A stretch of 60,533 nt of DNA from a virus (taxonomy: Duplodnaviria; Caudoviricetes), in the IMG/VR virus record IMGVR_UViG_3300021959_009735, positions 1 to 60,533 of that record; one strand, written 5' to 3'. The notes below the pieces were generated by a model. That model was not told the DNA's origin. It worked only from the letters and a program-made list of their open reading frames with translations, and did not search any database. Position 1 is the stretch's first letter. Every line of letters begins with the position of its first letter. The position numbers and the translations under genes were made by a program. Below are positions 75 to 44,474 of the stretch, one piece after another.

Positions 75-148
75 TACCCTTGGTAGGAGTCGAACCCACA
101 AACAGCAGACCCTAAATCTACCGGCTTTGCCAATTTGCCTACAAGGGT
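75..148 (-). tRNA. tRNA-Leu(UAG) with short variable loop; CCA not encoded
   Basis: Cloverleaf: acceptor ACCCTTG/CAAGGGT, D-arm GGC-AAATTGGCAAA-GCC, anticodon arm GTAGA-TT TAG GG-TCTGC, variable TGTTT, T-arm GTGGG-TTCGACT-CCTAC, discriminator A. Confidence 0.9.
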
Positions 149-33751: not shown

Positions 33752-34660
33752 CTACTGCCTCAAGGTCTTATCCAACCTGATGTCCATATCTGTAAATACG
33801 TCTGGGATCCTATGAGCATGAGTTGCTCGCACCGGATTAATATCGATACCTCCTCTTCGAGTATACAGACAAGCAACCATTAGCTCATCTGGCTTATATG
33901 CTTCCATGAGATGGATAAATGTCATTTCGCAAACCTCCTCATGAAAATGATTTACCTTTCTATGACTTACAATATACTTTGCCAGAGAGGCTGGGTCTGG
34001 TATGAGAGAGGATCTAATGCTAATATAAATGTCTCCCCAATCCGGCTGGTTTGTAACACGGCAGTTTGATCTTAGAAGATCAGATTTGAACTTTGTGCTG
34101 AGGGGTGCGTCTAGAACTTCTTTAACTTTAAGCTGCGAAGCATCGGATTTGTATGAGTTAAACTCTAGACTATCTAGATCAACCAAGCTGCCTAGGTCCA
34201 TGAATCCGTATAGACCTTGAGATGCTTCAAAGATGGTTGTAAAAAGTTTTGCTTCAGCTTTAGTCTCTAAGAGTTCGGATAGATCTTTAGATACTCTTGT
34301 CTCAATCTCTCGAATAACCTCAGCAGTACTATCTCCCATTACCGTCATGTTAAACGAATTGAGATAGAGCTTGATCGACTTAGATTCTACATGGTATTGA
34401 GAATCGGCCGGACACCAGATCTTAAGCATACCTGAGACTGGAAGACCTTTGGAGGTGAGAGCCGAAACCTCGTATGCATTCCAAACATCTCCTCCTACGA
34501 AAGGCAGATTGTTTTCTTCGATGCCGTATGCTTCTCGATTGAGAATACGAGGAATCTTAACTAGAAGTTCTGGATCGTAGCTGTCTTTGTATCCGGCTCC
34601 GCCTACCTGGCCTAGGTGCTTTGCTGCAATTTCTGATACTGCGTTGTAATTATCTGACAT
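33752..34660 (-). CDS. queF: NADPH-dependent preQ0 reductase QueF (two-T-fold type)
   Basis: WNAYEVS, VESKSIKLYLNSFN, RSNCRVTNQPDWG, FHEE, YTRRGGIDINP. Confidence 0.95.
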   Translation of the reverse strand: MSDNYNAVSEIAAKHLGQVGGAGYKDSYDPELLVKIPRILNREAYGIEENNLPFVGGDVWNAYEVSALTSKGLPVSGMLKIWCPADSQYHVESKSIKLYLNSFNMTVMGDSTAEVIREIETRVSKDLSELLETKAEAKLFTTIFEASQGLYGFMDLGSLVDLDSLEFNSYKSDASQLKVKEVLDAPLSTKFKSDLLRSNCRVTNQPDWGDIYISIRSSLIPDPASLAKYIVSHRKVNHFHEEVCEMTFIHLMEAYKPDELMVACLYTRRGGIDINPVRATHAHRIPDVFTDMDIRLDKTLRQ

Positions 34661-36347: not shown

Positions 36348-36896
36348 TTAACTACCTAAGTGTTTTTCTAAAAAGGCTGTCCATAGTCCGTGAGACAGCT
36401 TAGATAATATATGAAAAGTTCCGTCCATATCCAACCCTTCTCCTCTAACTGCCGCCTGTGCTATAATTCTACCTTCGTCTACACCTTCAGAGACATTATG
36501 CAGTACTGATCCAATCCATTCGTAGTTGCCCATCCAGGCCCTCATTTGAGGATCTTTTCCTTTGAGTTCTGGGTAGAGGGTGATGAGTCCGGGATGACCG
36601 TTGTATATGTCATAATTCTCGCACATCCACGGCGACATAATTCTAAGCCATCCATGTAACGTAATGATGGGATTGTAGTATCCGTAGAGTACGGCTCGTA
36701 ACTCTTCGTCCGAAGGTCGGTTAGAAACTTTGATAATTTCACCAGGATACTCCTCAATTAACTTAGGGTTGATTGTCCGAAGGTCTTCCGGACGTTCGTT
36801 TGTTATAATTAGGTCCGGCCAGTAGTCTAAATCTCTGGCTAGATTTCTAATCTCTGTACCGGTCTGGCTAAAGAAGGTTATCCAAGGTCGCTTCAT
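36348..36896 (-). CDS. PurN-like formyltransferase, probable preQ1 formyltransferase (DpdN-like)
   Basis: FFSQTG, HGWLRI, NGHPGLI, GSVLHNV..GVDEGRII; ATGA-coupled to the DpdA-like gene. Confidence 0.8.
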   Translation of the reverse strand: MKRPWITFFSQTGTEIRNLARDLDYWPDLIITNERPEDLRTINPKLIEEYPGEIIKVSNRPSDEELRAVLYGYYNPIITLHGWLRIMSPWMCENYDIYNGHPGLITLYPELKGKDPQMRAWMGNYEWIGSVLHNVSEGVDEGRIIAQAAVRGEGLDMDGTFHILSKLSHGLWTAFLEKHLGS

Positions 36897-37720
36897 ACTA
36901 CCGGATCAATCAAATCAAGAGTTCCGTTTACAAACCATCTGAATCTCTGCATATTGTACTTCATCATCTGAAGCTGTTCGTAAGATACCTCTGAGTTGAT
37001 GAGAGTGAAGAGCTTTTCAGACGCTTTATCCCACAGTCCTTGATCAGAGTACTCAATATGCTTGAGACCGTGTACAACCGGGTTGGATGTATCTAGGGAA
37101 TAAATCCAATCCATGTCATCCGCCTCTTTGTAGAACATAAACTCTTGAGGTAGAGAACATCCAAGAAGGTGGTGCTTACGGTTTGTATTGATTACTCCGT
37201 TAGCCTTGAGTTTGCTTAGTAGAGTAACCCTACCGAGCATCCAGCTTACAAGCTTATTAGAATGCGGGACTAGATCTTCATAGAGAGAAAAATCAAACGG
37301 GAATGCAATCATATCGATATCAAGCTTATCAAACTCCTGATACAGGCTTGCAATCTCAATATAGGATTGACCTTGGATGACCGCTATCTTTTTGCCCGGA
37401 AGATCAGAATACTTCTCCATCCACGTTCTAACGTTTCTCAAAGTACCAGAAGAATCTTCTAGAACATCTGGAATGATATACCAGGTCGGTCTAAACTTCT
37501 CAATCCACTCTGCATACCGATCCATATCGAATGCAGTACCGAGTTCGAAAATTGAGTTATCTAGAATAATTTCTCGACCGGCATCTCTAGCTTTTTCGAA
37601 CATAGCCAGATATTCTGGACTTTCGTCGAAGAGGTGAACTAGAGCGTAATCGTAGTCTGTAAACTTTTGAACTTCTTCAAAAACACTTATTGTGCTCTCA
37701 TGAGCAATCTTAATCGGCAT
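36893..37720 (-). CDS. TGT-fold 7-deazaguanine transglycosylase (DpdA-like)
   Basis: ILDNSIFE, PDV, AVIQG, HHLLG, SLDTS motifs; inside the Que cluster. Confidence 0.78.
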   Translation of the reverse strand: MPIKIAHESTISVFEEVQKFTDYDYALVHLFDESPEYLAMFEKARDAGREIILDNSIFELGTAFDMDRYAEWIEKFRPTWYIIPDVLEDSSGTLRNVRTWMEKYSDLPGKKIAVIQGQSYIEIASLYQEFDKLDIDMIAFPFDFSLYEDLVPHSNKLVSWMLGRVTLLSKLKANGVINTNRKHHLLGCSLPQEFMFYKEADDMDWIYSLDTSNPVVHGLKHIEYSDQGLWDKASEKLFTLINSEVSYEQLQMMKYNMQRFRWFVNGTLDLIDPVV

Positions 37721-37922
37721 CTTCTATATCTAATTCTGAAATGGAGTTAATTGAGTCTGTGTACTCTTTAGTGACTTTATCAAGAGCACTGAGAGCCTCT
37801 TGCAGCTGTTGAGATAAAATCGAGTTAATTGCCTCTACCGCTACCTTATACGGAACTACGTCTATATTGAGAGTAGGGTGATGAATTTTATTCTCTTCTA
37901 AAGTTTTGTATACGTCATTCAT
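37710..37922 (-). CDS. hypothetical protein
   Basis: 70-aa ORF overlapping both neighbours. Confidence 0.65.
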   Translation of the reverse strand: MNDVYKTLEENKIHHPTLNIDVVPYKVAVEAINSILSQQLQEALSALDKVTKEYTDSINSISELDIEDAD

Positions 37923-38440
37923 TTGATTTGGCTGAGTTCTTCTTCGGTAAAGAATTGACTCAGATTAGGTGAAAAGTAATTGATGCTTTTCATAACCTTC
38001 TTATCTCGAGTACGATATACAATGTAGTATTCGCCTACTTTCTCGAAGTGGCAAGGCTCACCTTGCTGTTCGGCTCGTACACGTACTGTCTCTTCTGCTT
38101 CTTCTACCGAGGTACAAACTTTACTCATATTGGAGGCCTGTACTTCGGCGTAAGCCGGAAGCAGCTTATCCTTCAGTCCAAATGCCATGGTAGCATTACC
38201 TACTGCAACATACAGTAGATCGCAAATAGCATCTAGTACCGATACGATGTCTTTTTCTTGGACTGCCTCAGCCAACTCCTCAGTTTCTTCTTTGATGAAG
38301 TTGATAACGAAGTCAGTGATTTTCTGTTCTGGTACAATAGCCCGATAGTAATTAGGCTTGCCGAAAGTGTGATTAAAGATTTCAACTTCATCGACGAATG
38401 GTACGTTAGGGTTGGTTGGTAGTGTTTTCTGTTCTGTCAT
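37919..38440 (-). CDS. MazG-like nucleoside-triphosphate pyrophosphohydrolase
   Basis: EETEEL..LDAICDLLYV, EVQASNMSK. Confidence 0.85.
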   Translation of the reverse strand: MTEQKTLPTNPNVPFVDEVEIFNHTFGKPNYYRAIVPEQKITDFVINFIKEETEELAEAVQEKDIVSVLDAICDLLYVAVGNATMAFGLKDKLLPAYAEVQASNMSKVCTSVEEAEETVRVRAEQQGEPCHFEKVGEYYIVYRTRDKKVMKSINYFSPNLSQFFTEEELSQIK

Positions 38441-38771
38441 AATCATCTTGTAATCTTACAATGTCATCTTCACCAAAATACGAACCAGTTTGCACTTCTA
38501 CAAATGCTGCGGGAATATTTCCTTTATTCCAAGCTCGGTGATGCACACCTAGTCCAATCTCGATGGTATCTCCATCAACTAAAGTGAATTCATGACCTTG
38601 ACGGATAACTGTCAAGGTTCCTCCAACACAGGTCCAGACTTCTTTTCGCTTAGTATGGTACTGGTAGGAGAGTCTCTGACCTGGGTTGACGAAGATCTCT
38701 TTTACCTTACAATACGTAGTATCGTGAAGGACTGTAAAGAATCCCCAGGGTCGCTGTTCTAGTTTCGACAT
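38406..38771 (-). CDS. cupin, mannose-6-phosphate isomerase type II-like
   Basis: RPWG, PGQRLSYQYH, EVQTGSYFGEDDIVR. Confidence 0.85.
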   Translation of the reverse strand: MSKLEQRPWGFFTVLHDTTYCKVKEIFVNPGQRLSYQYHTKRKEVWTCVGGTLTVIRQGHEFTLVDGDTIEIGLGVHHRAWNKGNIPAAFVEVQTGSYFGEDDIVRLQDDYDRTENTTNQP

Positions 38772-39475
38772 TTTCCTGCTAGTTCGATGTTCTTATAAAA
38801 TTCTGCTCTAGCACTATCTTCATCTAGGAAGCACCCCGAAAGCTGTGCCGTTTGCATAGAAGCTCCCTGGTGCTTAACCCCTCGGCATGAGACGCAGTTG
38901 TGTGTAGCATCTACCATGACGGCTACTCCAAGATTATTTTCACAAATCTTATCGATTGCGTTATGGATGGCAACCGTAAGCTGCTCTTGGATTGCTCCTC
39001 GACGGGCAAAGTGCTCTACAATTCGATTGAGCTTAGATAGTCCAACTACCTTACCATCTTTGTTCGGCACATAAGCTACGCTTACATGACCTTTGATGGT
39101 CTGGTGATGATGTGAGCACATCGATGTAATCGGAATATTAGATTCCTGAACAAGGCCGGTATATCCATCTGCCGGGAAAGCTGTAATCGCATCTAGAGGT
39201 TCGAATCGACCTCTCCATAGATCGTTTACATATGCTTTTGCAACCCGAGTAGGAGTATCGGCCGAGTTCGGATCATTTTTCCAATCGCATCCTAGAGCTT
39301 CTAGAAAGCGTCCGAAATGAACGGCTGCCTCTCTAATAATTTCATCTTTTTCTTCGGTAGAAAGATGGGCATTCTCTCTTTGATCTGAAAGCTGCCTGTA
39401 TTTGAGTTGAGTACTGATACCGTTTGCAAAGCCGGCAGGTACAATCTCTGTATCTGATATAAACTTTTTAGCCAT
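38759..39475 (-). CDS. folE: GTP cyclohydrolase I
   Basis: DTPTRVAK, SMCSHH, VGLSKLNR, IQE, HNCVSCRG. Confidence 0.95.
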   Translation of the reverse strand: MAKKFISDTEIVPAGFANGISTQLKYRQLSDQRENAHLSTEEKDEIIREAAVHFGRFLEALGCDWKNDPNSADTPTRVAKAYVNDLWRGRFEPLDAITAFPADGYTGLVQESNIPITSMCSHHHQTIKGHVSVAYVPNKDGKVVGLSKLNRIVEHFARRGAIQEQLTVAIHNAIDKICENNLGVAVMVDATHNCVSCRGVKHQGASMQTAQLSGCFLDEDSARAEFYKNIELAGKCRN

Positions 39476-39476
39476 A

Positions 39477-39668
39477 TTAATCTTTCAATAACGTTTTATC
39501 GGATGATCCGGTATACGTGTCAGTTGATATATTATACGAAATATTCTCGTCTAATACAACTGATTGTAGTTTTTCTTTCAGTTCATCCCACTGTTTAGGT
39601 GTGGTCGTATAGTCGTTGCATGCGGCTACAAATCCTTGCATCCACAAGACAAATTCTCTAGGTGTCAT
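39477..39668 (-). CDS. hypothetical protein
   Basis: MTPREFVLWMQGF phage-type N-terminus. Confidence 0.7.
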   Translation of the reverse strand: MTPREFVLWMQGFVAACNDYTTTPKQWDELKEKLQSVVLDENISYNISTDTYTGSSDKTLLKD

Positions 39669-39670
39669 CT

Positions 39671-40447
39671 TTAAACCTCTCTTTGAGTATCAAATGCGAT
39701 GATATGTGGACGTCCGGTAAACCTGTACTGATGCTTTGTACACCAGTCCATCACCATCGGATAGATTCGGATAAGCTCCTCTCTTTCATCTCCAGGAGGC
39801 ATGATCCAAATCCGCTCTCTTGGTACATTCAGTTCAGCCATAAATTCCTGAATCTCATTCCAGGTATCAGGATCTTCTACCGGATTGACAACTACCTTCA
39901 TATGGTAGTTATCATGATACTCGATAGATTGCTTGATAGATTCTTTATTCAGCCTGAACTTATTATGCACTTTAACAAATCGTTCATCTACGACTTGTCC
40001 TTGAGGAGTTATAGCTCCAATTTCCGGTACACTGTTGCTAAACTTCGGAGAGAAGGAAACTAGGTCTAACGGGTAGTCTGTCTCTAGGAAATGACTACCT
40101 TCGGTCTCCATCGTAATGATAATTCCTCTTTCGTTAGCAAAATGAGTAAGCTCATTTACTAGAGCACCATGCATAGAAGGCGAACCTCCCGTTAGCATCA
40201 TCTCCGTAATGTGGGGATATTCATCGTAGATGTCGATAATATCTTGAAAGGTATATTTACCCTTCTCTGGATGGATGCTGGTGTACCAGCTATCGCACCA
40301 TCCTCCTTCTCCGAAAAAGCACCGGTGTGTACATCCGGTAGTTCTTACTGCGATTGTTGGTAGCCCTGCTCTACTACCTTCTGATTGGATGCAGGCATAA
40401 AGTTCAACGATAGGGAGAACTTTAGAGTAGTCTTCTATTCTATTCAT
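39671..40447 (-). CDS. queE: 7-carboxy-7-deazaguanine synthase (radical SAM)
   Basis: IQSEG..G, RTTGC, CDS, TGG, ETEG, SPK; Cys motif CX3CX7C. Confidence 0.92.
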   Translation of the reverse strand: MNRIEDYSKVLPIVELYACIQSEGSRAGLPTIAVRTTGCTHRCFFGEGGWCDSWYTSIHPEKGKYTFQDIIDIYDEYPHITEMMLTGGSPSMHGALVNELTHFANERGIIITMETEGSHFLETDYPLDLVSFSPKFSNSVPEIGAITPQGQVVDERFVKVHNKFRLNKESIKQSIEYHDNYHMKVVVNPVEDPDTWNEIQEFMAELNVPRERIWIMPPGDEREELIRIYPMVMDWCTKHQYRFTGRPHIIAFDTQREV

Positions 40448-40450
40448 ATG

Positions 40451-40480
40451 GTTGTTTTTAAAGTGGTGCTACGACACTCT
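40451..40480 (-). ncRNA. preQ1-I-like riboswitch aptamer
   Basis: AGAGTG-TCGTAGCAC-CACTTT-AAAAACAAC: P1 stem, UCGUAG..C loop, A-rich tail able to pseudoknot; 3 nt before the queE ATG. Confidence 0.7.
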
Positions 40481-40483
40481 GTC

Positions 40484-40948
40484 TTAGGGTTGATAAATAG
40501 CTGAGTTTTTGTTATGCTCGTAGAATTCTAGCTTTTTCACTCTAACTCTACCCTCAGTTTCTTTATCTACGAAGGTATTAATCTTCTCGTATAAATATTC
40601 GGCGAACCTCTCTGCTCCTACGGCCGGGACGACTCTTAGTTGAATGATTCCTTGTTCGTCTAGAAGTTTAAATCTTCCAAGAGCCGGATCATCGTCGGCA
40701 ATAATAACTGTATGGTCTAGCAAATGGTCAAACCATTCTTTAGGAGACATGCCTTCAATTTTATTGACTGCACGTTTCATTCCTCCAAAATCCCAGACCC
40801 AGTTTCGATGATCTAAATCACCTTCAAACCATACCCGGAAAGAAACTCCGTAACCGTGTAGGTATTTGCAATGTGTTGTTACTGCCTTCCATTGACGAAA
40901 GCAAGTAGAAAATCCGTCGAATAACTTAGTAGATGTGAATTTTGCCAT
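40484..40948 (-). CDS. queD: 6-carboxytetrahydropterin synthase
   Basis: CKYLHGY, DFGG, LDH, GAERFA, FYEH. Confidence 0.92.
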   Translation of the reverse strand: MAKFTSTKLFDGFSTCFRQWKAVTTHCKYLHGYGVSFRVWFEGDLDHRNWVWDFGGMKRAVNKIEGMSPKEWFDHLLDHTVIIADDDPALGRFKLLDEQGIIQLRVVPAVGAERFAEYLYEKINTFVDKETEGRVRVKKLEFYEHNKNSAIYQP

Positions 40949-40954
40949 AACTGA

Positions 40955-41833
40955 TTATTTTAATTCTTTAATATAAGAACGAAGTCTATCTTGAGGCAAC
41001 CATTCAAGGTGTTTTAGTGAATCATCTGACTCACGTAATGTCTCCTGGTAGTTACCTTTCTGGTTCGGAACGTATACTTTTTTACATCCAAATCTTTCAA
41101 TGAACATATCTGCTACTTCATTAATAGAGTAGTTATGACCGGTCCCTAGTTCCCATTCAAAAATATCTTCCGGAAGTACTCCTAGACCAATACGAAGTAA
41201 CCCTTGTACAATATCGTCAACGTGTGTAAAATCTCTTCTCTGCTCTCCATCTCCGACAATAGTAATAGGTTCTTCGGTGTTGACCTGATGTCTCCACTTT
41301 CCTATAACCGCCGCGAAAGGATCGTCAACGAGTTCTCCTTCACCGTACACGTTGTAGAATCTAGCAATCTGGGCATCTACTCCGTATACGGTTCTGTACA
41401 TTTTGCATAGATCTTCCCCTACTTTTTTTGCAGTAGCATAAGGGGAAATTTCCGGGTCATGCCATCTAGAGGAAGAACCTGCGTATACAACTCTAGCATT
41501 TCCTATCATTCGAGCAAAGTCTAAGACCTCTTGAGTGCCGGTAGCATTAACTCTAAAGAACTCTGATGGATCATCGAACGATGGTTGAATACGGCTGAGA
41601 GCAGCCAGGTGGAAGATAACATCGTACCTATCGTGTGCCCGATGCCTATGAAAAAATTCTAGATCGAAAATCTCTTCTATATCTCCGTAAAAGTATTTAC
41701 AAAGTTTGTTTTTGGGAAGAGTGCTGGGGTGAGATCTATCATCCAAGCTATGGACATCGTAACCTGATTTAACCAGGGCGTTAACGAGGTGCTTACCTAT
41801 AAAGCCTTCACCGCCCGTAACTAAAACCTTCAA
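40955..41833 (-). CDS. NAD-dependent epimerase/dehydratase
   Basis: TGGEGFIG, HLAA, YATAK, RFYNVYG, RDFTHV; TTG start at 41833. Confidence 0.9.
   Translation of the reverse strand: MKVLVTGGEGFIGKHLVNALVKSGYDVHSLDDRSHPSTLPKNKLCKYFYGDIEEIFDLEFFHRHRAHDRYDVIFHLAALSRIQPSFDDPSEFFRVNATGTQEVLDFARMIGNARVVYAGSSSRWHDPEISPYATAKKVGEDLCKMYRTVYGVDAQIARFYNVYGEGELVDDPFAAVIGKWRHQVNTEEPITIVGDGEQRRDFTHVDDIVQGLLRIGLGVLPEDIFEWELGTGHNYSINEVADMFIERFGCKKVYVPNQKGNYQETLRESDDSLKHLEWLPQDRLRSYIKELK
40970..40999 (-). promoter_or_regulatory. sigma70-like promoter for queD, embedded in the epimerase 3' end
   Basis: TTGCCT-18-TATATT. Confidence 0.5.
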
Positions 41834-41835
41834 TC

Positions 41836-42390
41836 TTAATCCTCTAGATAATTTAAAAGTTTGTCGCCGTCTTCCGATTCTACGGCTAAGTCTCCGTCGA
41901 AATCTGCTCTCCATATTACACACTCAAACGTTTCTGGGTAAACTGTTCTTACGTTAATAGTATTGTTTGCAATGTTTCTGATTTGAATAATATCGTAGGG
42001 TGTTATACCGTCCATCTCGATATCGCCTACAATGCCGGGACATTCTTGAGTATGGTAGAGATTAACCGTTGGTGCGTTCATATACCATTGGAAGTAAGCA
42101 TCCGCATCCTTGTCGGTTACAGTCCCATCTCCATCGTAATCGGCCCTCCAAAGAGCGCATGCATATTCAACTCCGCTTTGAGCTACTCCTTCAACGCTAT
42201 TACCTAAAGATAGGTCTAATATCAAGGAAGCATTAAAGACTCCGTGATTCTTATTTGAAGGAGAAGGTTTACCGAGGTCAACTCTCTGTACGGTGGGACA
42301 GTCTTCTGGTCCTACTTCTTTATCCTCTGAGTTAACTGAGTCGCATGCTACGAGGCCACAAATGGAAAGGATGAGCAATAACTTTTTCAT
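41836..42390 (-). CDS. lipoprotein with dockerin/EF-hand-like repeats
   Basis: Lipobox LVAC; ADYDGDGTVTDKD, GDIEMDGITPYD, ADFDGDLAVESED. Confidence 0.78.
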   Translation of the reverse strand: MKKLLLILSICGLVACDSVNSEDKEVGPEDCPTVQRVDLGKPSPSNKNHGVFNASLILDLSLGNSVEGVAQSGVEYACALWRADYDGDGTVTDKDADAYFQWYMNAPTVNLYHTQECPGIVGDIEMDGITPYDIIQIRNIANNTINVRTVYPETFECVIWRADFDGDLAVESEDGDKLLNYLED

Positions 42391-43595: not shown

Positions 43596-44474
43596 TTATC
43601 CTGCATATCCTGCTAGCACCTCCTCTGCATGAGCTTTGGCTACTTCCCAAGAGACCGGACCAGTTTCGTCTTCGTACTGTACCGGGTCTGGGCGTCCAAG
43701 TTTAATAAAAGCTTCGATGCGTTCTACCGAAGAAGCCGACTTATAGTCAGAGTTTCCGGATGGGAACGGCTTATAGGAAGTGTTAGTCAGAGAATATACC
43801 GTATCGAAATCTAATCCAAGATTTTCACAGCATGCTAGACCATCTTCCAGAATGGTAAACTTATCTCCATCAAGGTAGGGAGTAGAATACGTTACCTTGT
43901 CTGAATCCCAGTTTCCGACCAGGAAGGCTTCGTAATCTGCATCTCTAAACTCTTGACGGCAGTCTGGATAGATTGCATGGTCTCCGGCATGAATACCGAG
44001 TGCGATTTCAACCGGACAATCCCATTCGTTTGCAATCGAAAGAGCTACGGACTGGATGATAGAAGAGAAGATCTTATTCCGGTTCGGTACAACCGTTGCC
44101 TTCATATTGTCTTCGGCGTAATGCCCTTCAGGTACATCTTCTCCGCCAGAGACTAGATTAGAATTTAAAAGATCAGATAGCCCATCCAGCTTGATAATCT
44201 GATGCTTAATTGGATAGAACATTCTCTTACCGGGATTCTGCTCTAATGCATGTCCATTCAGGTAACGTACAAGATCGGAAGCTCGGTTTAGTTCTACTCT
44301 ATGTTTCTGTCCGTAATCAAAGGATAGGGCTGTTACGTCATATCCTGCGTTAAGGAGGTGTAAGAGTAGGGTGGAGGAGTCCATCCCTCCGCTAAGACTT
44401 AGTACTGCTTTTTTTGGAAATAAATCGGCTTGCATTTGTTTAACCGTTGGTGAGTCAGTATTGTGATATTGCAT
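43596..44474 (-). CDS. queC: 7-cyano-7-deazaguanine synthase
   Basis: SGGMDSS, FDYGQKH, VPNRN, HAGDHAIYPDCR. Confidence 0.95.
   Translation of the reverse strand: MQYHNTDSPTVKQMQADLFPKKAVLSLSGGMDSSTLLLHLLNAGYDVTALSFDYGQKHRVELNRASDLVRYLNGHALEQNPGKRMFYPIKHQIIKLDGLSDLLNSNLVSGGEDVPEGHYAEDNMKATVVPNRNKIFSSIIQSVALSIANEWDCPVEIALGIHAGDHAIYPDCRQEFRDADYEAFLVGNWDSDKVTYSTPYLDGDKFTILEDGLACCENLGLDFDTVYSLTNTSYKPFPSGNSDYKSASSVERIEAFIKLGRPDPVQYEDETGPVSWEVAKAHAEEVLAGYAG

Follow-up and report, generated by a model that had tools for sequence, protein, structure and literature searches.

Class I preQ1 riboswitches (preQ1-I) fall into three types, which a 2024 review (PMC11625349) tells apart by a few bases around the first stem, P1. 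Type II carries an 'AC' before the P1 3' strand, a conserved G-C floor, a C.G-C ceiling triple and an A-rich loop L3; type I, which takes up two ligands, carries a 'UC' before the P1 3' strand and a 'UU' after the 5' strand; in type III a 'UU' follows the 5' strand and AAGG is buried. The same text has the A-rich L3 of preQ1-I docking in the P1 minor groove. In the published T. tengcongensis (Tte) RNA, CUGGG and CCCAG flank the loop UCGCAGUAAC, and CCCAG runs into UUAACAAAAC AAGG (PMC10639078). Here we analyze a similar element in a virus genome (Duplodnaviria; Caudoviricetes), the 60,533-nt IMG/VR record IMGVR_UViG_3300021959_009735, which we refer to over its full length as the window. An earlier reading of the bare sequence (the original prediction) had proposed that a riboswitch in the gap between queD and queE gates queE, a gene of a phage DNA-modification pathway. 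To our knowledge, few riboswitches are known in phages. We consider it likely that the element is a compact, type II-like preQ1-I aptamer of the H-type pseudoknot kind, which most likely represses translation of queE from a leader without a Shine-Dalgarno sequence.

According to the list of open reading frames (ORFs), all genes around the queD-queE gap lie on the minus strand. The queD stop codon UAA occupies 40486-40484 and the queE start codon AUG 40447-40445, leaving a gap of 36 nt (40448-40483, minus strand) that reads GAC AGAGUG UCGUAGCAC CACUUU AAAAACAAC CAU and runs into the AUG. This confirmed the gap sequence given in the original prediction, from which only the leading GAC had been omitted. 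RNAfold predicted a stem of six pairs (A-U, G.U, A-U, G-C, U-A and G-C) closing on G-C, the same P1 as had been proposed. The likeness to preQ1-I that had been claimed was also borne out: the window loop is nearly that of the published Tte aptamer, with 8 of 9 bases of UCGUAGCAC matching UCGCAGUAAC and one deletion. A single instance of the pattern AGTG-N8-12-CACTWWAAAAA is present in the window, against zero expected from 100 shuffles; model R1, described below, found a single copy there at 46.9 bits, the next-best match scoring 10.7. By analogy with preQ1-I, the floor would be formed by G 40475 and C 40465 and the ceiling by C 40473 with G 40469-C 40454, C 40466 being the candidate ligand-specifying base and A 40455-40459 the L3 tract.

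The element is conserved in related viruses and is tied to the genes of one pathway. A QueE similarity search yielded 36 viral loci, with QueE identities of 51-71% among them; five of these carry AGUG-N9-10-CACU-WWAAAAA close to 7-deazaguanine genes. At locus L013 the 26-nt core is identical to that of the window, but it stands before a small ORF (sORF) heading an sORF-queD-queE string. A pattern scan of IMG/VR returned 103 stretches, in which the terminal ATG nearly always starts QueE, the small ORF, QueD or FolE. These copies split into two forms, type A and type B; the window belongs to type A, which has the loop UCGUAGCAC, UCACAGCAC or UCGUAGAAC and the tail UWAAAAAC. A rescan with loop and tail fixed and the stem unconstrained gave 119 matches, the viral contigs involved numbering more than 100; 84 of the matches have 4/4 stem pairs. 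Eighty of these 84 stem-intact copies lie 5-11 nt, counted from the invariant C to the AUG, before a 7-deazaguanine ORF: the small ORF in 69 cases, FolE in eight, QueD in two and QueE in one, the window itself. Three of the remaining four are cut by the locus end, and all 35 matches with three or fewer stem pairs lack a 7-deazaguanine gene downstream.

The small ORF (57-107 aa; e.g. L013:424-663) is thus the commonest gene directly behind the aptamer (69/80) and heads the sORF-queD-queE strings; it shows a conserved PDPKLHQxISFIKSGIRI motif and a hydrophobic tail, and matched no Pfam or PHROG family.

Two alignments were used to follow the stem. Alignment A1 comprises 79 distinct sequences and served, with P1 only, to build model R1. 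Because the A1 set had been selected for pairing, we also took a motif-blind sample consisting of the 80 best FolE relatives in IMG/VR. Model R1 matched 49 of these 80 viral loci, in every case on the coding strand and just upstream of folE; the 26 distinct FolE-anchored copies make up alignment A2, which was fitted to model R1. Several phage contigs carry two copies before different operons; two uncultured contigs have two each. In the cultured Flavobacterium phage immuto a single copy, in the folE leader at MW353175.1 32361-32399, ends 3 nt before folE, and model R1 found none in Cellulophaga phage phiST. Two copies, before a small-ORF homologue and folE, were also seen on a phage-like contig that is binned in a Verrucomicrobiales metagenome-assembled genome (L386; NYWG01000135.1, 5922 bases).

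With the loop unchanged, the stem occurs as AGUG/CACU (84 copies), CCUG/CAGG (49), UGAG/CUCA (17), GGUG/CACC (6), GGAG/CUCC (4) and UGUG/CACA (1). In A1 the successive core pairs are AU 45/CG 19/UA 9/GC 6, GC 60/CG 19, UA 69/AU 10 and GC 79, so that three of the four show compensatory changes, the first with four pair types and the next two with two each. The closing G-C, equivalent to the P1 floor of type II, is invariant in 79/79 sequences of the pairing-selected A1 and in 26/26 of the model-fitted A2. The A2 stem is 99% paired, with variable pairs of GC 11/UA 10/AU 4 and UA 14/AU 12. Within the A2 loop, U5, G7, A9, G10, A12 and C13 never vary, C6 occurs in 24/26 copies and position 8 is variable. 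The 'AC' before the P1 3' strand that marks type II is present (in the window, A 40467 followed by C 40466) and invariant in 26/26 A2 copies; at least four A's after P1, as in the A-rich L3, are invariant in A1 and A2, and the tail C (C 40454 in the window) occurs in 24/26 A2 copies. The comparison of related leaders that the original prediction had called for therefore came out in its favour, the element being kept before four pathway genes with compensatory changes in the stem.

Counterparts occur in bacteria. A scan of species-representative genomes gave 56 stretches, 49 of which read CCUG-UCGUAGCAC-CAGG-UWAAAAACA. They stand before queC in Thalassospira, Leucothrix and two Gammaproteobacteria-like contigs and before queD in Vibrio, Marinomonas and Thaumasiovibrio; each of four genomes tested contains a single copy. 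Model R1, which was itself trained partly on them, scores these copies at 42-50 bits. The location in leaders of 7-deazaguanine genes that is expected of preQ1-I accordingly holds for the viral copies, the FolE-anchored loci and the bacterial queC and queD genes alike. The proteobacterial copies may already be counted among the published type II sequences. As far as sequence comparison goes, conservation, the bacterial counterparts and the resemblance to Tte together support the original prediction of a preQ1-I-like aptamer before queE of a phage DNA-modification pathway.

In the bacterial queD leaders L364, L367, L390, L363, L375 and L381, a variable hairpin is followed by a conserved GUGCUGCAUUGUU...AGGACAAUGCA just before the AUG. 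The GUGCUGC found in Vibrio and Marinomonas queD leaders is complementary to the loop segment GUAGCAC, which suggests a putative switching expression platform.

The window encodes a full preQ1 pathway, with FolE, QueD, QueE, QueC, QueF, a DpdA3-like protein and a formyltransferase. According to the Hutinet preprint, phage immuto has the same gene set and every G of its DNA is replaced by fdPreQ1; that text proposes the PF00551 protein DpdN as the maker of fdPreQ1 in immuto and describes a transglycosylase with Campylobacter phage relatives as the DpdA3-like pattern. The window queE is 70% identical at the DNA level to the annotated QueE gene of immuto. Since QueC, QueF, the DpdA3-like transglycosylase and the formyltransferase are all present, preQ1 would be the free end product of the pathway, and since the gene set is that of the fdPreQ1-bearing immuto, we infer that free preQ1, or preQ0, is the natural signal. 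Tte structures have been solved with both preQ1 and preQ0, according to the review (PMC11625349). Of the 64 long ORFs in the window, 14 have a Shine-Dalgarno-like 4-mer upstream (background 0.19), and the upstream regions are A-rich. The window genome thus uses no Shine-Dalgarno sequences, which fits the Bacteroidota-type hosts of its nearest cultured relatives.

These features can be combined into a mechanism. A stem of 4-6 bp would close on G-C, and the last C of loop UCGUAGCAC would pair with the ligand; the A-tract would lie in the minor groove of the stem, while a pair between C 40454 and loop G 40469 would roof the pocket. During infection, a build-up of free preQ1, or of preQ0 as its precursor, would lock the pseudoknot, which would then take up the whole A-rich stretch at about -34 to -4 before the queE AUG. 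Because the genome uses no Shine-Dalgarno sequences, this stretch would be the landing site of the ribosome. Translation of queE would then fall, providing feedback on the precursor supply for 7-deazaguanine DNA modification, and the element probably allows the phage to limit how much modified guanine it makes. The review predicts Shine-Dalgarno-independent translational riboswitches and states that current searches miss them (PMC11625349).

The transcript that carries the element probably starts further upstream than had been thought. The original prediction had placed a possible promoter at the TATTTAT shortly before the stem. Among 92 distinct upstream regions of other type A copies, 82 contain an exact TATATT, preceded at about 20 nt by a conserved GTTG, and the window lacks this GTTG-N20-TATATT signature at the gap, which speaks against the proposed promoter. 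A promoter-like TTGCCT-18-TATATT upstream of queD is likely, from its match to the consensus, to be the start of a queD-queE transcript. As the signature is missing at the gap and a TATATT site precedes queD, the element is probably internal to this transcript. In the viral loci, type A aptamers follow the signature, (A)GTTG-N20-(c)TATATT, at a distance of 0-23 nt; in L423-L502, for example, it is found at about 340-365. Related folE leaders that lack the aptamer keep TATATT.

The second helix, P2, is less well defined than the stem. The register GUAG/CAAC put forward in the original prediction can form in the window (G-C, U-A, A.A and G-C), but it is not conserved across the family. A pair between loop G and tail C is possible in 79/79 A1 sequences, both bases having been fixed by the search patterns. 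The sole hint of covariation in P2 comes from 8 distinct sequences, where a C at loop position 8 is always accompanied by a G at tail position 28. A-rich tails pair easily with U by chance. P2 of the window element is therefore best described as a possible, candidate helix.

Several results weigh against a preQ1-I-like switch. Beyond the loop G/tail C pair, P2 cells pair in 37% of cases in the continuous register and in 58% in the Tte-like register. The stability of the window hairpin is at chance level (-3.2 kcal/mol, z -0.21; the shuffles average -2.85), with 76/200 shuffles being as stable. Part of the loop and tail invariance in A1 comes from the search patterns, in which those bases were set beforehand, and the 100% stem pairing in A1 results from selection; the independent compensatory events are few, because there are only about six classes of stem variant. 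At gathering score, Rfam 15 gave a tRNA as its sole match over the whole window and no PreQ1. The Infernal search with the Rfam PreQ1 model that the original prediction had suggested likewise failed to support it: RF00522 (gathering score 39 bits) gave no match at E<=10 in 251 nt, nor across the whole 60.5-kb record, where 15 candidates were scored. The same model misses the bacterial look-alike copies, and since it misses both these and the window, the element does not belong to the family as curated. Finally, model R1 found no copy in any of 151 sampled Bacteroidota genomes (0/151), a large run in which fewer candidates per genome were scored than in the positive control (recovered in 4/4 cases), and RF00522 found none in the same 151; the likely host phylum therefore gives no supporting copy.

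RF00522 did give a match in the B. subtilis genome used as a control, and Rfam scans of the related viral and bacterial loci assigned no family to the motif. The best RF00522 matches in five bacterial genomes (17-25 bits) are located elsewhere and look like chance. As the curated model misses phage and proteobacterial copies alike, the compact form may be under-counted. One further structure was set aside: in the 66-nt fold (z -1.91) the start codon would be buried by a long-range helix CUAUUUAU/AUGAAUAG, which was dropped because its upstream half lies in the queD coding sequence and is absent from other loci.

These results have to be set against other explanations of the element. It could be a genuine preQ1 or preQ0 riboswitch that acts on transcription or on the fate of the RNA, through pseudoknot-stabilized pausing, Rho-dependent termination within queE or altered decay. 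Ligand-dependent, pseudoknot-stabilized pausing that needs no terminator is described for the B. subtilis preQ1-I in the review (PMC11625349), and beyond the aptamer no expression platform is visible in the window. The start codon follows the invariant C at a short, fixed distance (5-11 nt across 80 copies), which points instead to control of initiation, and no intrinsic terminator follows the aptamer, the sole terminator-like match in 39500-41100 lying inside queD. We therefore regard this explanation as unlikely. Slightly harder to sustain is a hairpin and A-tract that serve as an operator for a phage or host RNA-binding protein, a translational repressor or activator, and not as a small-molecule sensor. 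A single hairpin that has a conserved loop and stands beside a start codon is typical of protein operators, which speaks for such a function, as do the missing covariation support for P2 and the missing match to Rfam PreQ1. A common protein partner is unlikely, because the same loop is found in phages and in Alpha- and Gammaproteobacteria with different downstream platforms. The near identity of the window loop to that of Tte also argues against an operator, and so does the finding that the invariant bases are those which, in preQ1-I, touch the ligand or make up its pocket (PMC11625349). We give the operator only a small chance.

That the hairpin arose by chance in an A-rich gap, or is a member of the DUF805 RNA family (RF03081), we consider very improbable. 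Its shuffle-level stability would suit a chance origin, which is contradicted by conservation, gene linkage and covariation, the related loci not being near-identical copies, as the QueE identities given above show. DUF805 RNA was the sole Rfam match at E<=10 in the 251 nt (15.7 bits, E 1.7, against a cut-off of 51.1 bits), its alignment covering GUG...CACUUUAAAAAC...AUAUGA. The score is far under the cut-off, and eight genuine Bacteroidota members (76-88 bits) have GGGGCG...CCGAAAAGCC and GAGUAGGA modules that are absent from the window, so that this assignment was rejected. A ligand-binding aptamer that represses queE translation remains the explanation we favour.

The second form of the element, type B, occupies the queD-queE gap and occurs only before queE. 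It consists of AGUG, an A-rich 10-nt loop ending in AAC, CACU and UWAAAAAAUUAAC(A)AUAUG, in summary AGUG-A[A/C]NG[A/U]A..AAC-CACU-UWAAAAAAUUAAC, and is found at L014:529-564, L016:1455-1491, L019:1459-1494, L020:1456-1491 and about 70 further viral loci. Type B shows no covariation because all 60 queE-linked copies share AGUG/CACU, and model R1 detected no type B elements. Among loci of at least 9 kb, QueF was seen in 0/42 with type B against 10/41 with type A, and a DpdN-like formyltransferase in 0/42 against 13/41. Type B may be a variant with a remodelled pocket that senses another 7-deazapurine, such as preQ0 or 7-carboxy-7-deazaguanine, or it may be a decayed aptamer.

Full-text literature searches, with most subscription journals and supplements outside their scope, found no riboswitch linked to phage 7-deazaguanine genes. 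The Hutinet preprint, which defines the immuto and phiST modifications, contains neither 'riboswitch' nor 'regulat'. For Streptococcus phage Dp-1, considered as a possible carrier of a preQ1 riboswitch, none is annotated in the record and none was found by Rfam in the first 5 kb. It is possible, if doubtful, that the elements described here form the first riboswitch regulon known for DNA base hypermodification: a phage lineage of preQ1-I-like aptamers of about 30 nt, working by Shine-Dalgarno-independent occlusion in Bacteroidota-type leaders, with type B as a sister that possibly senses another 7-deazapurine. If the proposed function is correct, the phage measures a free precursor base and tunes a pathway by which every G in the genome is replaced in relatives. 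It would then also be a natural translational riboswitch that works without a Shine-Dalgarno sequence, and the copy in the cultured phage immuto makes the idea directly testable.

The coordinates of the element and of the surrounding features are compiled in the table. Interleaved with the 7-deazaguanine genes are an NAD-dependent epimerase/dehydratase (40955-41923, minus strand), a cupin/mannose-6-phosphate-isomerase-like protein (38406-38771, minus strand) and a MazG/PRA-PH-like pyrophosphohydrolase (37919-38446, minus strand).

Table. Features of the queD-queE gap and of the 7-deazaguanine gene region in the window.
Feature	Position	Strand	Basis or remark
P1 5' strand AGAGUG	40475..40480	-	RNAfold; conserved 4-bp core AGUG 40475-40478; G 40475 in closing G-C
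Aptamer loop UCGUAGCAC	40466..40474	-	U5 and C6, L1; G7 U8 A9 G10, candidate P2 5' strand; C11 A12 C13, L2
P1 3' strand CACUUU	40460..40465	-	RNAfold and alignment; core CACU 40462-40465
A-tract AAAAA, L3 equivalent	40455..40459	-	A run invariant in alignments A1 and A2
Candidate P2 3' strand CAAC	40451..40454	-	C 40454 would pair with loop G 40469
queE start codon	40445..40447	-	6 nt after C 40454
queE (7-carboxy-7-deazaguanine synthase), putatively gated gene	39671..40447	-	Radical_SAM match below cut-off
queD (PTPS), upstream gene	40484..40948	-	PF01242, 56 bits
TATTTAT	40499-40493	-	Inside end of queD, 12 nt before stem
Promoter-like TTGCCT-18-TATATT upstream of queD	40970..40999	-	Consensus match only; 3 such sites occur where shuffles would give 4.2
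folE (GTP cyclohydrolase I), downstream in same gene string	38759..39475	-	PF01227, 150 bits
DpdA3-like DNA guanine transglycosylase	36893..37720	-	59.6% identity to immuto protein so annotated; relatives in Campylobacter phages
Formyltransferase-like protein (DpdN-like), adjoins DpdA3-like gene	36348..36896	-	PF00551, 35 bits
queF (preQ0 to preQ1 reductase)	33752..34660	-	PF14819, 113 bits; PF14489, 63 bits
queC	43596..44474	-	PF06508, 125 bits
Small membrane-like ORF, 57 aa	43433..43606	-	Follows queC in window
tRNA gene	75-148	-	53.8 bits

When the window element is placed beside known RNAs, the DUF805 RNA of Bacteroidota leaders shares with it a GUG...CAC hairpin that runs into UUAAAAAC, but has GGGGCG...GCC and GAGUAGGA modules and a different loop. 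The proteobacterial queC/queD leader motif CCUG-UCGUAGCAC-CAGG-UWAAAAACAC is much closer: loop, tail core and stem length are identical and it too precedes Q-precursor genes, whereas its stem sequence is another one and Shine-Dalgarno-containing leaders or extra hairpins follow it. With preQ1-I types I and III (PMC11625349), the element has in common the idea of an H-type pseudoknot and the same ligand; it differs from them by 'AC' and 'UC' at the two diagnostic places and by having no AAGG.

The closest match is preQ1-I type II, represented by T. tengcongensis and the B. subtilis queC leader (PMC11625349; PMC10639078). Differences exist in size, the window loop measuring 9 nt against 10-12, L3 about 5-7 nt against 8-9 and the conserved stem core 4 bp, and in the tail, which in the window family lacks Shine-Dalgarno bases and reads CAAC or CACN in place of CAAGG or CUAAGG. 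Moreover, the window element is missed by RF00522 and sits in phage genomes on a DNA-modification pathway, whereas type II serves tRNA queuosine. Shared features are the short stem closing on G-C, the 'UC' after the 5' strand (Tte), the NNAG segment, the 'AC' before the 3' strand and the A-rich tract followed by a C able to pair with the loop G. Both are linked to queC, queD, queE and folE, and the aptamer lies right against the start codon, an arrangement it shares with the translational Tte switch. Although it lies outside the membership of the curated model, the element would, by this analogy, work like preQ1-I type II.

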